From Escherichia coli (GTDB taxonomy: Bacteria; Pseudomonadota; Gammaproteobacteria; Enterobacterales; Enterobacteriaceae): 13,511 nt of DNA. The number at the start of each line of letters is the position of its first letter. The stretch's first letter is position 1. The stretch is taken from the NCBI RefSeq assembly GCF_003334315.1, contig NZ_QOWR01000081.1; one strand, written 5' to 3'. Below the pieces are notes generated by a model that had not been told where the DNA came from, did no database searches, and saw only the letters and a list, made by a program, of their open reading frames with translations. The translations under genes and the position numbers were made by a program. Of this stretch, positions 5,600-13,511 are shown one piece after another.

Positions 5600-5627
5600 C
5601 GGCTGGCAAATTGTCAGCCGCTTTTTC
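5600..5627 (+). terminator. Rho-independent terminator after yiaY
   Basis: CGGCTGGCAAATTGTCAGCCG hairpin (5600-5620) immediately followed by CTTTTTC. Confidence 0.55.
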
Positions 5628-5684
5628 AACTATCTCTGTAACCCTTGCCCGTAAATTCGTGATAGCTGTCGTAAAGCTGTTACC

Positions 5685-5707
5685 GACTGGCGAAGATTTC
5701 GCCAGTC
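5685..5707 (+). promoter_or_regulatory. Perfect 10-bp inverted repeat with 3-bp spacer (GACTGGCGAA-GAT-TTCGCCAGTC) in the aldB leader; candidate operator or 5'-UTR hairpin
   Basis: Read directly: 5685-5694 is the exact reverse complement of 5698-5707; lies 42 bp upstream of the aldB ATG; no T-run follows, so not a terminator. Confidence 0.3.
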
Positions 5708-5748
5708 ACGTCTACCCTTGTTATACCTCACACCGCAAGGAGACGATC

Positions 5749-7287
5749 ATGACCAATAATCCCCCTTCAGCACAGATTAAGCCCGGCGAGTATGGTTTCC
5801 CCCTCAAGTTAAAAGCCCGCTATGACAACTTTATTGGCGGCGAATGGGTAGCCCCTGCCGACGGCGAGTATTACCAGAATCTGACGCCGGTGACCGGGCA
5901 GCTGCTGTGCGAAGTGGCGTCTTCGGGCAAACGAGACATCGATCTGGCGCTGGATGCTGCGCACAAAGTGAAAGATAAATGGGCGCACACCTCGGTGCAG
6001 GATCGCGCGGCGATTCTGTTTAAGATTGCCGATCGAATGGAACAAAACCTTGAGCTGTTAGCGACGGCTGAAACCTGGGATAACGGCAAACCCATTCGCG
6101 AAACCAGTGCTGCCGACGTGCCGCTGGCGATTGACCATTTTCGCTATTTCGCCTCGTGTATTCGGGCGCAGGAAGGTGGGATCAGTGAAGTTGATAGCGA
6201 AACCGTGGCCTATCATTTCCATGAACCGTTAGGCGTGGTGGGGCAGATTATCCCGTGGAACTTCCCGCTGCTGATGGCGAGCTGGAAAATGGCTCCCGCG
6301 CTGGCGGCGGGCAACTGTGTGGTGCTGAAACCCGCACGTCTTACCCCGCTTTCTGTACTGCTGCTAATGGAAATTGTCGGTGATTTACTGCCGCCGGGCG
6401 TGGTGAACGTGGTCAATGGCGCAGGTGGGGTAATTGGCGAATATCTGGCGACCTCGAAACGCATCGCCAAAGTGGCGTTTACCGGCTCAACGGAAGTGGG
6501 CCAACAAATTATGCAATACGCAACGCAAAACATTATTCCGGTGACGCTGGAGTTGGGCGGTAAGTCGCCAAATATCTTCTTTGCTGATGTGATGGATGAA
6601 GAAGATGCCTTTTTCGATAAAGCGCTGGAAGGCTTTGCACTGTTTGCCTTTAACCAGGGCGAAGTTTGCACCTGTCCGAGTCGTGCTTTAGTGCAGGAAT
6701 CTATCTACGAACGCTTTATGGAACGCGCCATCCGCCGTGTCGAAAGCATTCGTAGCGGTAACCCGCTCGACAGCGTGACGCAAATGGGCGCGCAGGTTTC
6801 TCACGGGCAACTGGAAACCATCCTCAACTACATTGATATCGGTAAAAAAGAGGGCGCTGACGTGCTCACAGGCGGGCGGCGCAAGCTGCTGGAAGGTGAA
6901 CTGAAAGACGGCTACTACCTCGAACCGACGATTCTGTTTGGTCAGAACAATATGCGGGTGTTCCAGGAGGAGATTTTTGGCCCGGTGCTGGCGGTGACCA
7001 CCTTCAAAACGATGGAAGAAGCGCTGGAGCTGGCGAACGATACGCAATATGGCCTGGGCGCGGGCGTCTGGAGCCGCAACGGTAATCTGGCCTATAAGAT
7101 GGGGCGCGGCATACAGGCTGGGCGCGTGTGGACCAACTGTTATCACGCTTACCCGGCACATGCGGCGTTTGGTGGCTACAAACAATCAGGTATCGGTCGC
7201 GAAACCCACAAGATGATGCTGGAGCATTACCAGCAAACCAAGTGCCTGCTGGTGAGCTACTCGGATAAACCGTTGGGGCTGTTCTGA
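5749..7287 (+). CDS. aldB: Aldehyde dehydrogenase B (NAD(P)-dependent)
   Basis: 512-aa reading from ATG 5749 preceded by AAGGAGA (5736-5742); translation [17 protein letters not shown]... with ALDH catalytic signatures (ELGGKSP glutamate motif, catalytic Cys in GEVCTCPSR). The track ORF start at 5611 is an unsupported upstream extension that overlaps the yiaY terminator. Confidence 0.92.
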
Positions 7288-7318
7288 TATAAGAAGCTGG
7301 TCGCATTGGGTATTCATT

Positions 7319-7400
7319 GCCTGATGCGACGCTTACGCGTCTTATCATGCCTACGGGAACCTGACCGTAGGCCGGATAAGGCGTACACGCCGCATCCGGC
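7319..7400 (+). repeat. REP/BIME element (two REP palindromic units in opposite orientation) downstream of aldB
   Basis: GCCTGATGCGACGCTTACGCGTCTTATCATGCCTAC (7319-7354) and GTAGGCCGGATAAGGCGTACACGCCGCATCCGGC (7367-7400) match the enterobacterial REP consensus families as I recall them. Confidence 0.75.
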
Positions 7401-7505
7401 ATAAACAAAGCGCACGTTGTTACAATTTACGTTTTAAACCTACGTGCGCAATAACCCAGACTACGCCAACAGAAGTGCGTTTCTGGGGCGTGTTTTGTCA
7501 GGAGT

Positions 7506-7646
7506 TTAATCTCGCGTTTCGATGGTGAGCGGGCGAACCAGGCCGTAAATCACCATTGGTGATCCGAGGCCAATCAGCAATAAACGGTAGATAATTGAAG
7601 GTTTAATACGCTTAATCTGTACTGTGGATGTTTTACTGGAGTTATT
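7506..7646 (-). CDS. Hypothetical small protein (47 aa from ATG 7646..7644; 70 aa if started at 7718), one predicted transmembrane helix
   Basis: Only ORF in the AT-rich aldB-yiaW spacer; translation MNNSSKTSTVQIKRIKPSIIYRLLLIGLGSPMVIYGLVRPLTIETRD has a basic stretch followed by a about 20-aa hydrophobic segment; no clear Shine-Dalgarno; unverified. Confidence 0.15.
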   Translation of the reverse strand, partial: NNSSKTSTVQIKRIKPSIIYRLLLIGLGSPMVIYGLVRPLTIETRD

Positions 7647-7765
7647 CATTAGTTTGGCCAATAGTTCCACTATTTCAATATGATAAACCTCGTCCTGTTG
7701 AAAAACCAGACAGCACATTTAAGAAAGTATATAAAAAACAATATGTCGTTATATAAATAAGGAAA

Positions 7766-7794
7766 TTGCACTGCATCATGGCATTTCATAATAT
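7766..7794 (+). promoter_or_regulatory. Candidate sigma70 promoter for yiaWV (-35 TTGCAC, 17-bp spacer, -10 TAATAT)
   Basis: Hexamers read by eye at 7766-7771 and 7789-7794 in an AT-rich region about 40 bp upstream of the yiaW ATG; no experimental support. Confidence 0.2.
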
Positions 7795-7831
7795 GCGTTA
7801 ATTGTTCTTTTTTATATTCTTTGAGGGAAAT

Positions 7832-8155
7832 ATGTTCCTGGACTATTTTGCACTGGGAGTGCTTATTTTTGTATTTCTGGTGATCTTCTATGGGATCATT
7901 ATTTTACATGATATTCCCTACCTGATTGCCAAAAAACGTAATCATCCTCATGCCGACGCCATTCATGTTGCTGGTTGGGTGAGTCTTTTTACGTTACATG
8001 TTATCTGGCCGTTTTTGTGGATTTGGGCCACGCTTTACCGCCCGGAGCGGGGATGGGGAATGCAAAGCCATGATTCATCCGTTATGCAACTGCAACAGCG
8101 CATTGCCGGGCTGGAGAAACAGCTCGCCGACATCAAATCCTCTTCTGCCGAGTAA
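7832..8155 (+). CDS. yiaW: Small inner-membrane protein YiaW (DUF3302 family, AaeX-like partner of a membrane fusion protein)
   Basis: 107-aa reading from ATG 7832 preceded by GAGGGA; two hydrophobic helices ([40 protein letters not shown]) then a coiled C-terminal tail; the track start at 7802 lacks an RBS. Confidence 0.85.
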
Positions 8156-8160
8156 TACTT

Positions 8161-9306
8161 ATGGATTTACTGATTATTTTGACCTATGTGGCTTTTGCAT
8201 GGGCAATGTTTAAGATCTTCAAAATTCCCGTAAATAAATGGACCATTCCCACAGCGGCCCTGGGTGGAATATTTATTGTCAGCGGTCTAATTCTGTTAAT
8301 GAACTATAACCATCCGTATACCTTTAAAGCGCAAAAAGCGGTTATTTCTATTCCTGTTGTCCCACAGGTGACTGGTGTGGTGATTGAAGTGACGGATAAG
8401 AAAAATACGCTGATTAAAAAAGGTGAGGTGCTATTTCGACTGGACCCGACGCGTTATCAGGCGCGGGTGGATCGGCTGATGGCGGATATCGTTACCGCAG
8501 AACATAAACAGCGGGCGTTGGGCGCAGAGTTAGATGAGATGGCGGCGAATACTCAGCAGGCAAAGGCCACGCGGGATAAATTCGCTAAAGAGTATCAGCG
8601 TTACGCACGTGGCAGCCAGGCGAAAGTAAACCCGTTTTCAGAACGCGATATCGATGTGGCGCGGCAAAATTATCTGGCGCAGGAAGCCTCCGTGAAGTCA
8701 TCGGCGGCGGAACAAAAACAGATCCAGAGCCAGCTGGATAGCCTGGTGTTGGGTGAACATTCTCAAATCGCCAGCCTGAAAGCACAGCTCGCGGAAGCAA
8801 AATATAACCTTGAGCAGACGATAGTGCGTGCGCCGAGCGATGGTTATGTGACCCAGGTACTGATTCGTCCGGGTACCTATGCCGCGTCGCTGCCGCTACG
8901 TCCGGTGATGGTGTTTATACCCGATCAGAAACGACAAATCGTGGCGCAGTTCCGTCAGAACTCCTTGCTGCGACTGGCTCCTGGCGACGATGCGGAAGTG
9001 GTGTTTAATGCTCTGCCAGGTAAGGTATTCAGCGGTAAGCTGGCAGCCATTAGTCCAGCCGTTCCCGGCGGAGCTTATCAGTCGACCGGCACCTTACAGA
9101 CGTTAAACACAGCGCCGGGTTCAGATGGCGTTATCGCGACCATTGAACTGGATGAGCACACTGATTTGAGCGCTTTACCAGACGGTATTTACGCCCAGGT
9201 GGCGGTTTACTCTGATCATTTCAGCCATGTCTCGGTGATGCGCAAAGTGCTATTACGCATGACCAGCTGGGTGCATTACCCACACCTGCGGCAACCGTGG
9301 CGATAG
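8161..9306 (+). CDS. yiaV: HlyD-family membrane fusion protein YiaV; last about 9 codons are junction-derived, not native
   Basis: 381-aa ORF starting 5 nt after the yiaW stop; N-terminal TM helix, biotinyl/lipoyl-like beta-barrel and long coiled-coil segments typical of membrane fusion proteins; from about 9280 the same nucleotides encode the WcaK N-terminal motif in another frame. Confidence 0.85.
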
Positions 9307-9361
9307 CGCCATTCTGCGCGGGCTTTTAGATGCCATCAACACGCTCTCGCCTGAGGCTGAA

Positions 9362-10537
9362 GTGGATGTGATGAGCCGTTATCCGGTGAGTTCTTCCTGG
9401 TTGCTCAATCGCCCGGTGATGGGCGATCCGCTCTATTTGCAGATGAAAGCGCATAACAATGCGCCGGGCATGGTCGGGCGAGTGAAGAAAGTATTGCGTC
9501 GTCGCTATCAGCATCAGGTGCTGCTGTCACGCGTCACGGACAGCGGCAAGCTGCGCAATATCGCCATTGCTCAGGGCTTTACCGATTTTGTGCGTCTGTT
9601 GTCCGATTATGACGCGATTATCCAGGTGGGCGGATCGTTCTTCGTCGACCTGTATGGTGTGACGCAGTTTGAGCACGCGCTGTGCACCTTTATGGCGAAA
9701 AAACCGATTTATATGGTCGGCCATAGTGTCGGGCCGTTCCAGGCACCGGCGTTTAACCATATGGCAAACTATGTCTTTGGTCACTGCGACGCGCTGTTCC
9801 TGCGCGAGTCGGTCAGCCTTGATTTGATGAAACGCAGCGACATTGACACCTCGAAAGTGGAGAAGGGTGTCGATACCGCCTGGTTGGTCGATCACCACGA
9901 TGACAGTTTTGACGCGAGCTACGCCGTCCAGCACTGGCTGAATGTGGCGCAGCAGCAGAAAACCGTGGCGATTACCCTGCGTGAACTGGCGCCGTTTGAT
10001 AAACGCCTGGGCACCACGCAGGAAGCCTACGAAAAAGCGTTTGCGGGCGTGGTAAATCGGATCATCGCCAGCGGCTGGCAGGTGATGGCGCTCTCTACCT
10101 GTACGGGCATCGACAGCTATAACAAAGACGATCGCATGGTGGCGCTTAACCTGCGTAAACATATTCAGGACCCATCGCGCTACCACGTGGTGATGGATGA
10201 GCTTAACGATCTCGAAATGGGCAAACTGCTGGGCGCCTGTGACCTGACGGTCGGTACGCGTCTGCATTCAGCAATTATCTCCATGAACTTCGGAACACCG
10301 GCGATTGCGATTAACTACGAACACAAATCAGCGGGCATTATGCAGCAACTGGGTATGCCGGAAATGGCAGTCGATATTCGCCATCTACTGAATGGCGACC
10401 TGGAAGCGATGGCGGCAGACACCTTGGGTCAACTCTCAACGCTTGTGCCGCGCCTCAATGACGCGGTAGCGCGTGAGCGCGCGGCGGGGCTGGCGATGGT
10501 GGAATCGGTATTAACGCGCATCGGGGAGGGGAAATGA
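9362..10537 (+). CDS. wcaK: Colanic acid biosynthesis pyruvyl transferase WcaK, 5'-truncated (homology begins at 9281 with no start codon; first in-frame starts are GTG 9362 and ATG 9371)
   Basis: Frame-2 translation from 9281 reads [20 protein letters not shown]..., the conserved N-terminal motif of polysaccharide pyruvyl transferases (PF04230-type); the frame is closed by TGA at 9260-9262; stop overlaps the wcaL start (ATGA). Confidence 0.8.
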   Translation: MDVMSRYPVSSSWLLNRPVMGDPLYLQMKAHNNAPGMVGRVKKVLRRRYQHQVLLSRVTDSGKLRNIAIAQGFTDFVRLLSDYDAIIQVGGSFFVDLYGVTQFEHALCTFMAKKPIYMVGHSVGPFQAPAFNHMANYVFGHCDALFLRESVSLDLMKRSDIDTSKVEKGVDTAWLVDHHDDSFDASYAVQHWLNVAQQQKTVAITLRELAPFDKRLGTTQEAYEKAFAGVVNRIIASGWQVMALSTCTGIDSYNKDDRMVALNLRKHIQDPSRYHVVMDELNDLEMGKLLGACDLTVGTRLHSAIISMNFGTPAIAINYEHKSAGIMQQLGMPEMAVDIRHLLNGDLEAMAADTLGQLSTLVPRLNDAVARERAAGLAMVESVLTRIGEGK

Positions 10538-11760
10538 AGGTTGGTTTCTTCTTGCTGAAATTCCCGCTGTCGTCTGAAACCTTTGTGCTCAACCAGATTG
10601 TGGCCTTTATCGAAATGGGCCACGAGGTCGAAATTATCGCCCTGCAAAAGGGCGATATGACCAACACCCACGCGGCGTTCACGCAATATGACCTGGCAGC
10701 GAAAACACGCTGGTTACAGGATGAACCAGTGAGTACGGGCGCAAAGTTTCGTCATCGCGCAGTCAGCACGTTGCGCGGGTTACATCGCCCGGCAACGTGG
10801 CAGGCGCTCAATATGAAGCGTTACGGCCATGAAGCGCGCAACCTGATCCTCTCGGCCATTTGCGGCAATAACGCCCAGCCATTTAGCGCCGACGTATTTA
10901 TTGCTCACTTCGGCCCGGCGGGGGTAACTGCGGCGAAACTGCGCGAACTGGGCGTGATCCGCGGCAAAATCGCGACCGTCTTTCACGGCATTGATATCTC
11001 CAGCCGCGATGTGCTGAGCCACTACACGCCGGAGTATCAACAGCTTTTCCGTCGTGGCGATCTGATGCTGCCGATCAGTAATTTGTGGGCGAAACGATTG
11101 CAGGGAATGGGCTGCCCGGCGGCGAAAATTGCCGTTTCGCGAATGGGCGTCAACATGGACCGTTTTGCCCTGCGCCCCACCAAAGCGCCGGGTGAGACGC
11201 TGCAAATAATCTCAGTGGCCCGCCTGACGGAGAAAAAAGGTCTGCATGTAGCGATTGAAGCCTGCCGTCAGTTGAAAGAGCGCGGTGTGGCGTTTCACTA
11301 TCGCATTCTCGGCATCGGCCCGTGGGAACGCCGCCTGCGCACATTGATCGAACAGTATCAACTGGAAGGGTACGTGGAGATGCCGGGCTTTAAGCCCAGC
11401 CATGAGGTAAAAGCGATGCTCGATGAGGCGGATGTCTTTCTGCTGCCGTCGATTACCGGCGCAGATGGCGATATGGAAGGCATTCCTGTGGCACTGATGG
11501 AAGCGATGGCAGTGGGCATTCCGGTGCTTTCGACCGAGCATAGCGGTATTCCGGAACTGATAGACGCCAACGCCTCCGGCTGGCTGGTGGCGGAGAACGA
11601 CGCTCCGGCGCTGGCGGGCAAACTCAGCGAACTGCGCCATCTTGATGAGCCGACGCTGCGCCCGGTGCTACAACGCGCCCGCCAAAAAGTTGAAACCGAG
11701 TTCAATCAGCAGGTGATTAACCGCCAGCTCGCGAGCCTGCTGCAAACCCTTTGCTATTGA
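10534..11760 (+). CDS. wcaL: Colanic acid biosynthesis glycosyltransferase WcaL (GT4 family)
   Basis: 408-aa ORF; N-terminus MKVGFFLLKFPLSSETFVLNQ... and C-terminal GT-B motif region (EGIPVALMEAMAVGIPVLSTEHSGIPELI) with the E-X7-E signature typical of GT4 enzymes. Confidence 0.88.
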   Translation: MKVGFFLLKFPLSSETFVLNQIVAFIEMGHEVEIIALQKGDMTNTHAAFTQYDLAAKTRWLQDEPVSTGAKFRHRAVSTLRGLHRPATWQALNMKRYGHEARNLILSAICGNNAQPFSADVFIAHFGPAGVTAAKLRELGVIRGKIATVFHGIDISSRDVLSHYTPEYQQLFRRGDLMLPISNLWAKRLQGMGCPAAKIAVSRMGVNMDRFALRPTKAPGETLQIISVARLTEKKGLHVAIEACRQLKERGVAFHYRILGIGPWERRLRTLIEQYQLEGYVEMPGFKPSHEVKAMLDEADVFLLPSITGADGDMEGIPVALMEAMAVGIPVLSTEHSGIPELIDANASGWLVAENDAPALAGKLSELRHLDEPTLRPVLQRARQKVETEFNQQVINRQLASLLQTLCY

Positions 11761-11766
11761 GGTTGC

Positions 11767-13158
11767 ATGGATAAAAAATTTTCCCGACGTCGCTTCCTGT
11801 CGGCAGGCGCTACGCTTGCCGCCATCCCACTGCTACACAGCCCCGCTGTACGCGCGCTGGGGCGTAATGATGCCGTTGATATCCGCAACTATCTGGTCGG
11901 TAATGACTGGATCCGTGCATTTCGTCAGGCGTTTGACGATGCCGATATTATCGACGTCCCCAAAGGCGTGATTTGCGACAATATTAATACCGGCATCATC
12001 ATGCCACCGGGTAAAACGCTGCAGGTAAACGGCAGCCTGAAAGGCAATGGTCGTGGGCGTTTTGCGTTGCAGGATGGGTGTAAAGTGGTGGGGGAGGGGA
12101 GTCTCAATAATATTACTCTCGACGTGCGCGGATCTGACTGCACCATCGAAGGTCTGGCGATGAGCGGCTTTGGCCCGGTGGCGCAAATCTACATCGGCGG
12201 CAAACAAAAAAGGACGATGCGCAATCTCACCATCACGCGGATTAATATCAGCCAGGCTAACTACGGTATTTTACGCCAGGGTTTCCATAATCAACTCGAC
12301 GGCGTAAAAATCACCCACAGTAAATTTAGCTACCTGCAGGGTGATGCCATTGAATGGAACGTCGCGATTAACGACAAGAATATCCTCATTTCTGACCATG
12401 TGATTGACCACATTGATTGCACCAATGGCAAGACCAACTGGGGCATCGGTATTGGGCTTGCGGGCAGCACCTACGATAACGACTACCCGGAGCACCAGGC
12501 GGTGAAAAACTTTGTCGTCGCCAATATCACCGGCAGCCACTGCCGACAGTTGGTTCACGTCGAAAACGGTAAACACTTTATTATCCGTAATATTAAGGCA
12601 CGAAATATCACCCCGGAATACAGTAAGAAAGCCGGAATTGATAACGCTACGGTAGCAATATATGGATGTGATAATTTCGTTATCGATGGTGTGGATATGG
12701 TTAATAGCGCGGGCATGCTAATTGGCTATGGTGTTATCAAAGGGAAATATCTGTCGATACCGCAGAATTTCAGGATAAATAATGTGCGGATGGATAATCG
12801 ACAATTAACGCTAAAGCTGCGGGGAATACAGATTTCATCGGGCAATGCACCTTCGTTTGTTGCGCTTACCAACCTCGATCTGAACCATGCGTCGCTGGAG
12901 ATCCACAACAAGCCGCAACACATATTTATGCGTAATATCAAGGTGATACAGCCTGCGGCGCGCGGGCCCGCACTACAGCTCCACTTCGACTTACGCAAGG
13001 ATGTTCGCGGGAAGTTTATGGCCAAACAGGAGACGCTGCTCTCGATGTCAAATATTCATGCGGTCAATGAAAACGGCCAGCGGTCTGTGGATATTGACCG
13101 TATTGATCAGCACGTTGTCAATGTCGATGCGCTGAATTTTACCCTGCCTAAACGCTGA
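11767..13158 (+). CDS. wcaM: Colanic acid biosynthesis protein WcaM (Tat-signal, predicted right-handed beta-helix)
   Basis: 463-aa ORF, GAGG 9 nt upstream of ATG; twin-arginine signal [18 protein letters not shown]...A-VRA-LG; repeated N-I-T / V-x-N motifs consistent with a parallel beta-helix; last gene after wcaL as in the colanic acid cluster. Confidence 0.85.
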
Positions 13159-13360
13159 ATTTTTAGCCGAACCCACCTCTTCAGACGCATTCTCGGATTG
13201 TATCCAGAGATTTAGCGGTATTTACCCGATACTATGAGAAAACATAGTGGATCAAACAACGTTAATAGCTATAATTCATCAACCGTATATAGGTGGACAC
13301 GATAATGGGTGATGATGCCAACTTACTGATTTAGTGTATGATGGTGTTTTTGAGGTGCTC

Positions 13361-13420
13361 CAGTGGCTTCTGTTTCTATCAGCTGTCCCTCCTGTTCAGC
13401 TACTGACGGGGTGGTGCGTA
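13361..13420 (+). promoter_or_regulatory. JUMPstart-like sequence with degenerate ops-like core, downstream of wcaM (upstream of the next polysaccharide locus)
   Basis: Begins CAGTGGCT (13361-13368) and ends GGGGTGGTGCGT (13408-13419), resembling JUMPstart ends (CAGTGGCTCTGG...GGGGCGGTAGCGT) as recalled, but the 8-bp ops GGCGGTAG is not intact. Confidence 0.2.
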
Positions 13421-13511
13421 ACGGCAAAAGCACCGCCGGACATCAGCGCTATCTCTGCTCTCACTGCCGTAAAACATGGCAACTGCAGTTCACTTACACC
13501 GCTTCTCAACC

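Follow-up and report, generated by a model that had tools for sequence, protein, structure and literature searches.

A 47-codon open reading frame in the aldB-yiaW spacer of Escherichia coli is most likely a decaying in-frame remnant of a 104-residue membrane-protein gene

The sequence analysed here (the window) is a 13,511-nucleotide stretch of E. coli contig NZ_QOWR01000081.1, with the gene order yibF-selA-selB-yiaY-aldB, a 544-bp spacer (7288..7831), and yiaW-yiaV. The spacer is 99.8% identical to that of K-12 MG1655. To its left lies aldB, encoding aldehyde dehydrogenase B (5749..7287, plus strand); the longest ORF at this position spans 5611..7287, and the 1539-nt length and the end adopted for the gene agree with the PGAP and K-12 annotations. 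To its right lies yiaW, encoding a DUF3302 protein (7832..8155, plus strand). Colinearity with E. coli ends at ~9280. There, yiaV lacks its last five sense codons, the K-12 protein ending in SWVHYLYLDH and that of the window in SWVHY followed by PHLRQPWR, and the segment 9280..13308 matches, at 99.2% identity, a 5′-truncated wcaK, wcaL, wcaM, and galF of the colanic-acid cluster, which is normally ~1.6 Mb away. The ~9280 junction occurs in none of 5,426 complete E. coli genomes; it may reflect a genuine rearrangement, an assembly error, or splicing of the window. The last ~200 bases (13309..13511) lie beyond the wca/galF match, and a query covering 9000..13511 had, over part of its length, very many matches per genome and matches to many plasmids, as would fit the edge of an insertion sequence.

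On the minus strand, the spacer carries an ORF of 47 codons (7506..7649), with its ATG at 7647-7649 and its stop at 7506-7508. A previous sequence-only reading had reported this ORF with the correct length, and with a 70-residue alternative from an ATG at 7718, which we also find; its span of 7506..7646 contained a 3-nt slip. The product, MNNSSKTSTVQIKRIKPSIIYRLLLIGLGSPMVIYGLVRPLTIETRD, has the polar, basic N-terminus and the hydrophobic segment described in that reading, the best 19-residue Kyte-Doolittle mean being 1.71, at residue 19. The ORF had been presented as the only one on the minus strand of the spacer, but two more are present, of 39 (7670..7789) and 34 (7675..7779) residues. Nor does the label ‘antisense’ apply, as no gene lies opposite the ORF, which is convergent with aldB and divergent from yiaW. 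In K-12 the ORF is 100% identical and occupies 3754611..3754754 on the plus strand of NC_000913.3, a curated record in which no gene is annotated at this position. PGAP calls it as the hypothetical protein WP_001066080.1 in many E. coli genomes. RefSeq annotation is inconsistent, since most E. coli genomes carry the call and O157:H7 and O145:H28 records do not; the ORF is intact and lacks a PGAP annotation in NZ_CP017446.1 (O157:H7) and NZ_CP006027.1 (O145:H28). A full-text literature search with the accession, coordinates, and peptide of the ORF returned unrelated numeric matches only. The literature on yiaW in macrophage adaptation concerns an IS1 insertion within yiaW and not this ORF.

The 70-residue reading would start at an in-frame ATG at 7716-7718, upstream of the 47-codon start, and would add a 5′ extension covering 7650..7718 (minus strand). 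Coding is not conserved in this extension. It is disrupted in six of the nine alleles compared (O157, O145, ECCNB12-2, 2020N21-110-24, RM9975, and Ec-042-T0) by stops, an ATG-to-GTG change, or a 1-nt deletion, and on this ground the 70-residue version was rejected. In Citrobacter amalonaticus the frame is closed upstream of the ATG that it shares with E. coli.

The remainder of the spacer contains several other features. Downstream of aldB is a cluster of REP/BIME palindromic repeats (7288..7437, inverted repeats at 7338-7403) with many matches per genome. A search of the spacer against Rfam gave three sub-threshold matches to the REP-derived naRNA4 (7277-7450, 33-40 bits against a gathering score of 59.5) and nothing beyond such REP-type matches, all of which lie outside the ORF. 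Next to the repeats, at about 7438..7509 on the plus strand, is a 3′ remnant of a hicB antitoxin gene. It comprises the last ~24 codons, less 12 nt that have been deleted in frame, and its TAA (7507-7509) overlaps the stop of the 47-codon ORF. The remnant encodes a C-terminus ending in RNNPDYANRSAFLGRVLSGV, compared with RNNPDYANRSAFLAEAARRVLPGV in HicB, and is ~84% identical in nucleotide sequence to the end of intact hicB in strains with aldB-hicA-hicB; hicA and most of hicB are absent from the window. In a sensitive DNA search, ~490 E. coli genomes matched positions 7440-7540 alone, at 82-84% identity, and these genomes carry aldB-hicA-hicB-GH127-MFS(-AraC) in place of yiaWV.

Toward yiaW, a sigma-70 promoter of yiaWV (CAGACA-17-TATAAA, 7708..7736, plus strand) has been predicted in a genomic SELEX table, in which the spacer is also flagged for H-NS (PMC3946193); this site overlaps the upstream ATG of the 70-residue reading. 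Alignment of 16 yiaW upstream regions defined a block at 7729..7776 (plus strand, TATATAnAAAnnCATATGnCGTTATATAAATAAG..ATTGCA), 48 bp long and AT-rich with a TATATA...TATATA symmetry, that is almost invariant in Escherichia, Citrobacter, and Pseudocitrobacter, also in species that do not have the 104-residue gene described below. The block is probably the yiaW promoter or operator, and the LysR regulator YiaU, divergently encoded further downstream, is an obvious candidate to bind it. This region, as far as the yiaW ribosome-binding site, is flanked by an 18-nt inverted repeat (7724-7741 / 7805-7822). The locus is a rearrangement hotspot. IS1 insertions occur in the aldB-yiaW spacer of some strains, such as E. 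coli KTa005, and in E. coli 2017.02.04CC an IS1B joins the spacer (at about window position 7750) to yiaL, with yiaW through yiaM gone.

The origin of the 47-codon ORF was revealed by comparison with relatives. The peptide and the spacer served as queries against 80 loci of YiaW relatives, one genome per species. An ORF of 104 residues, with the same start, occupies the same position upstream of yiaW in E. whittamii, Escherichia sp. E1V33, and C. amalonaticus. Its last nine residues, RPLTIETRD, are those of the 47-residue ORF (RPLQVKVVD in Citrobacter). In the alignment, residues 1-38 and 39-47 of the window ORF correspond to residues 1-38 and 96-104 of the full-length protein. Identity to the E. 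whittamii protein is 89% over the retained residues, and identity to the C. amalonaticus protein is 60% over the first 38. The form found in the window and in K-12 therefore differs by a deletion of exactly 171 nt (57 codons, 39-95), in frame. When the window ORF was split so as to fit a full-length E. coli allele best, the deletion junction fell at 7536..7544 (minus strand), within imperfect 12-nt direct repeats of the full-length gene, TACGGTCTGGTT and TACAGCCTGGTC (...YGLV and ...YSLV). The codon-for-codon correspondence at both ends indicates that the 47-codon ORF (7506..7649, codons 1-38 and 96-104) is the direct descendant of the gene for the 104-residue protein. Searches returned no homologues of the short ORF other than this family.

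The sequence-only reading had treated the ORF as a possible stand-alone small-protein gene and had added the caution that AT-rich DNA yields spurious ORFs. The first proposal is not supported: the ORF arose by internal in-frame deletion, and its short form is confined to E. coli and Shigella. The caution describes a second possibility, that of a chance ORF in intergenic DNA. The GC content is indeed only 28-38% over 7550-7850, although the description of the spacer as AT-rich fails at 7500-7550, where GC is about 50%; other short ORFs occur on both strands, and a ribosome-binding site is lacking. Yet both ends of the ORF align codon for codon with those of a conserved 104-residue gene under selection in three other species and 28 E. 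coli genomes, and 60% of the first 38 residues are shared with the C. amalonaticus protein. We regard a chance origin as refuted by homology and give it a very small residual probability.

The deletion has removed the last part of helix 1, the FG..WN..HG loop, and helix 2, in which the GLWxYS motif lies. Seven of the eight invariant or nearly invariant positions of the family are thereby lost (G46, N53, G59, G88, L89, W90, and S93), and only G27 is kept. What the short ORF retains is the N-terminal tail, 22 residues of helix 1, and the charged C-terminal tail. The hydrophobic stretch read earlier as a possible transmembrane segment does resemble a real one; by descent, it is helix 1 of a true membrane protein. 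The family profile also matches truncated E. coli forms. The short ORF has sequence homology to this ~100-residue two-helix family but not its complete architecture, and is a remnant of a member.

Several observations show that the full-length gene is real and under purifying selection. Its dN/dS is 0.09-0.15 among Escherichia species and 0.11-0.25 in comparisons with Citrobacter and Franconibacter, and at 56% identity the 104 codons are free of indels. When 1.84 billion representative proteins were searched with a profile built from four orthologues, 256 representative clusters (50% identity clusters) were matched at E<=1e-3 and 66 at <=1e-10, nearly all of 95-125 residues and matched end to end. 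Members share a K/R-rich N-tail and the pattern KLxxIGL...P...G.L..FG..T..WN....HG...GLWxYSxFRP. The AlphaFold model of the full-length protein, computed with the family alignment, has a mean pLDDT of 77 and predicts helices at 17-44 and 59-95 and a β-hairpin at 50-57. Searches of Pfam, NCBIfam, PADLOC, and PDB sequences with the full-length family gave no significant match, and the gene neighbourhoods of distant members showed nothing recurrent.

A Foldseek search of AFDB50 with the full-length ancestral protein returned the orthologues first and then many ~100-residue proteins carrying the UniProt name ‘DUF3566 domain-containing’ (E 7e-6 to 1e-3, TM-score 0.74-0.85, 24-38% identity). DUF3566 is also the UniRef name of the Franconibacter orthologue. 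In Pfam hmmscan, however, the DUF3566 model (PF12089) did not match the full-length E. coli or Franconibacter proteins at E<=10, nor any of 91 family members at E<=0.1, and the precomputed Pfam columns were empty; for this ~100-residue family the UniProt label and the Pfam model disagree. We found only one DUF3566 protein that has been characterised, the two-transmembrane CofA of Corynebacterium glutamicum, whose binding site on PBP1a is the membrane helix of the latter (PMC7205459). The predicted fold suggests that the intact ancestor possibly resembles this actinobacterial PBP1a cofactor. Because a two-transmembrane fold is simple, likeness in fold is weak evidence, and because the Pfam profile matches none of the 91 members, CofA is a functional lead and not an established membership.

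The full-length gene is kept in 28 of 5,426 complete E. coli genomes, annotated as WP_001064341.1 or WP_001064340.1, with or without intact hicAB adjoining. The deleted form is present in ~3,790 of the same genomes, K-12 included. A search of 5.8 billion proteins with the peptide returned E. coli entries only, at 83-100% identity, which is much variation for one species. Conservation across species, which the earlier reading had proposed as a check, thus holds for the 104-residue homologue but not for the 47-residue form, found in E. coli and Shigella only. Comparison of loci indicates that other Escherichia lineages have lost the 104-residue gene by at least two additional routes: in Escherichia sp. 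MOD1-EC7003 the 5′ part and the start are gone, and in strains with hicAB followed by a GH127 gene only its last eight codons remain.

The arrangement of the locus in relatives bears on the age of the gene. In C. amalonaticus the order is yiaY-aldB, the 104-residue gene on the opposite strand, and yiaW-yiaV-yiaU-yiaT, and hicAB is absent. The Franconibacter orthologue sits between avtA and aldB, with no yiaW. From these two arrangements the gene is an old neighbour of aldB. As it is present in only three of the 80 yiaW-type loci and Franconibacter has it without yiaW, the stable neighbour is aldB and not yiaW. A link to yiaWV was rejected on the same two grounds. Intact hicA-hicB lies between aldB and the 104-residue gene in Escherichia sp. 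E1V33 and some E. coli, and hicB is annotated in 14 of the 28 listed E. coli genomes with the full-length gene. Together, these arrangements indicate that hicAB was inserted between aldB and the 104-residue gene in Escherichia and later mostly deleted.

This history also bears on a different origin for the ORF, as a type I toxin-like hydrophobic peptide gene or as a young de novo ORF at a recombination junction by the hicB remnant. The peptide is small and hydrophobic, lies in an intergenic region beside toxin-antitoxin debris, and its last ~10 codons at first seemed to derive from the 3′ flank of hicB, read antisense. That ‘hicB flank’ is instead the 3′ end of the 104-residue gene, which overlaps the hicB stop in the intact arrangement, and de novo formation at a recombination junction was rejected on finding this overlap. 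As for a toxin, there is no antisense RNA in Rfam, a single copy per genome, no PADLOC match, and no similarity to known toxins. Taken together, we consider an origin of either kind highly improbable.

The selective regime of the short ORF was assessed in nine divergent E. coli alleles. Segregating sites make up 15% of the ORF, 17.6% of the adjoining non-coding DNA, and 6% of yiaW. The pN/pS ratio is 0.54 in the ORF, 0.05 in yiaW, and 0.00 in the end of aldB, and two other frames of the same stretch give values equal to that of the ORF. The comparison of synonymous and non-synonymous changes for which the sequence-only reading had called yielded 11 against 12, 23 in all; at least 11 synonymous changes arose by random re-placement with P = 0.036. 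Full-length alleles have 21 synonymous and 8 non-synonymous changes, and the contrast with the short ORF is not significant (Fisher P = 0.09, or 0.20 on retained codons only). The conserved Arg of the FRP motif is replaced by Cys in four of the nine alleles, and N-terminal residues 2-5 are freely replaced. The 47-codon frame is open in all nine alleles, an outcome that scattering the same mutations at random would produce with a probability of 0.22. With respect to frame disruption, which had been named as evidence against a gene, these alleles are thus free of it, but rare frameshifted, fused, rearranged, or IS-disrupted variants appear in public data.

The full-length alleles of E. coli fall inside the range of diversity spanned by the deleted ones, lying 1.7-1.9% from the RM9975 and Ec-042-T0 alleles, while most deleted alleles differ from one another by 3.5-6%. 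These distances suggest that either the deletion has been recurrent or the flanks have been mixed by recombination. In either case, part of the polymorphism, with its synonymous bias, may have arisen in copies that were still intact. As judged from the alleles compared, the substitution pattern of the short ORF is compatible with relaxed constraint, of which it is not proof, and some residual constraint may persist.

These data can be weighed against the possibility that the truncated ORF is expressed and functions as a single-pass small membrane protein, for example by still contacting the partner of the ancestral protein through helix 1 or by newly regulating a membrane protein. Its start and stop are intact with the frame open in all nine alleles, the mild synonymous excess is concentrated in the helix, the deleted allele is the majority form in E. 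coli, and a basic N-tail followed by a 22-residue hydrophobic helix is the usual build of a small inner-membrane protein. Against this, site diversity equals that of the flanking non-coding DNA, pN/pS is no lower than in the two other frames, residues 2-5 and the conserved Arg vary freely, polymorphism carried over from intact alleles confounds the synonymous excess, and an open frame in every allele is not improbable by chance. Frameshifted variants are known, the gene has been lost outright in other lineages, and curated K-12 annotation omits the ORF. A Shine-Dalgarno sequence is also missing (ggccaaacta ATG), as the sequence-only reading had observed. However, none was found in any Escherichia allele, full-length or deleted, although one is present in C. 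amalonaticus and more distant family members; since the full-length Escherichia alleles also lack it, its absence says little about the short ORF specifically. A promoter and terminator scan of the spacer found nothing on the minus strand and no promoter-like site. On balance, we consider a functional small protein unlikely. A more specific form, in which most E. coli, K-12 among them, still produce a ‘miniaturised’ CofA-like protein as a 47-residue single-pass peptide that keeps, or dominantly interferes with, the partner contacts of helix 1, appears more doubtful still. If true, the miniaturised peptide would be a natural case in which truncation, and not de novo birth, gave rise to a small protein.

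The explanation that we favour, and consider likely, is that the 47-codon ORF is an unannotated remnant of the 104-residue membrane-protein gene, most likely a decaying pseudogene and not a dedicated small-protein gene. The ancestor would have been an enterobacterial gene, immediately downstream of aldB and convergent with it, for an inner-membrane protein of ~104 residues that began with a basic N-tail in the cytoplasm, followed by helix 1, a short loop (WN..HG), the long helix 2, and a charged tail at the C-terminus. In the lineage of most E. coli, the 171 bases of codons 39-95 were lost between the two imperfect 12-nt direct repeats, for which replication slippage or a microhomology-mediated deletion would be the simplest mechanism. 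Loss in frame joined the original start and the first 22 residues of helix 1 to the last nine codons as an open 47-codon frame. Because the short form lacks the loop, helix 2, and nearly all of the conserved positions, we infer that the ancestral function was lost. The remnant would thus be decaying slowly, open by happenstance, and probably without meaningful expression.

These findings have several consequences. For annotation, the aldB-yiaW spacer of K-12 holds an unannotated gene remnant and a hicB fragment, and the ‘hypothetical protein’ WP_001066080.1 would be better named a truncated form of the 104-residue protein. For surveys of small ORFs, the case is a caution that a convincing membrane-peptide ORF can be the in-frame stump of a larger gene, a question that comparison with near relatives quickly settles. 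As a by-product, the analysis identified a widespread ~100-residue two-helix family for which Pfam and NCBIfam have no model. The CofA lead applies to the intact gene, which is available in Citrobacter, Franconibacter, and a few E. coli strains.

The short ORF can be placed relative to known systems. It shares its locus, start, residues 1-38, and last nine residues with the full-length Escherichia protein (WP_001064341.1, WP_001064340.1), and lacks residues 39-95; further full-length relatives occur in C. amalonaticus, C. farmeri, C. telavivensis, and Franconibacter (103 residues). The full-length ancestor in turn shares with DUF3566 proteins and CofA a size of ~100 residues, two membrane helices, and a predicted fold, but it does not match the Pfam profile, and its context is aldB, yiaW, or avtA and not the gyrA-linked one of CofA. 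The 47-residue form would keep one helix only. Validated E. coli small inner-membrane proteins (<=50 residues) came to light through ribosome profiling and through comparative genomics that used ribosome-binding-site models. The short ORF resembles them in size, in its single hydrophobic helix, and in positive charges on the N-terminal side, but it has no ribosome-binding site, is not conserved beyond E. coli and Shigella, and derives from a deletion. Like the genes for type I toxins of the Hok, Ldr, Ibs, and TisB families, it is intergenic and codes for a peptide that is small and hydrophobic, but it has no sequence similarity to them, no antisense RNA, and no multiple copies, and its origin is different and traceable. 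Closest in kind are the K-12 pseudogenes ysaC and ysaD near sgbE, which, like the 47-codon ORF, are short leftovers of genes intact in relatives and lie in a variable region of the chromosome. The remnant described here differs from them in being unannotated in NC_000913.3 and, unusually, in still being an open frame from start to stop, because the deletion that produced it was in frame.
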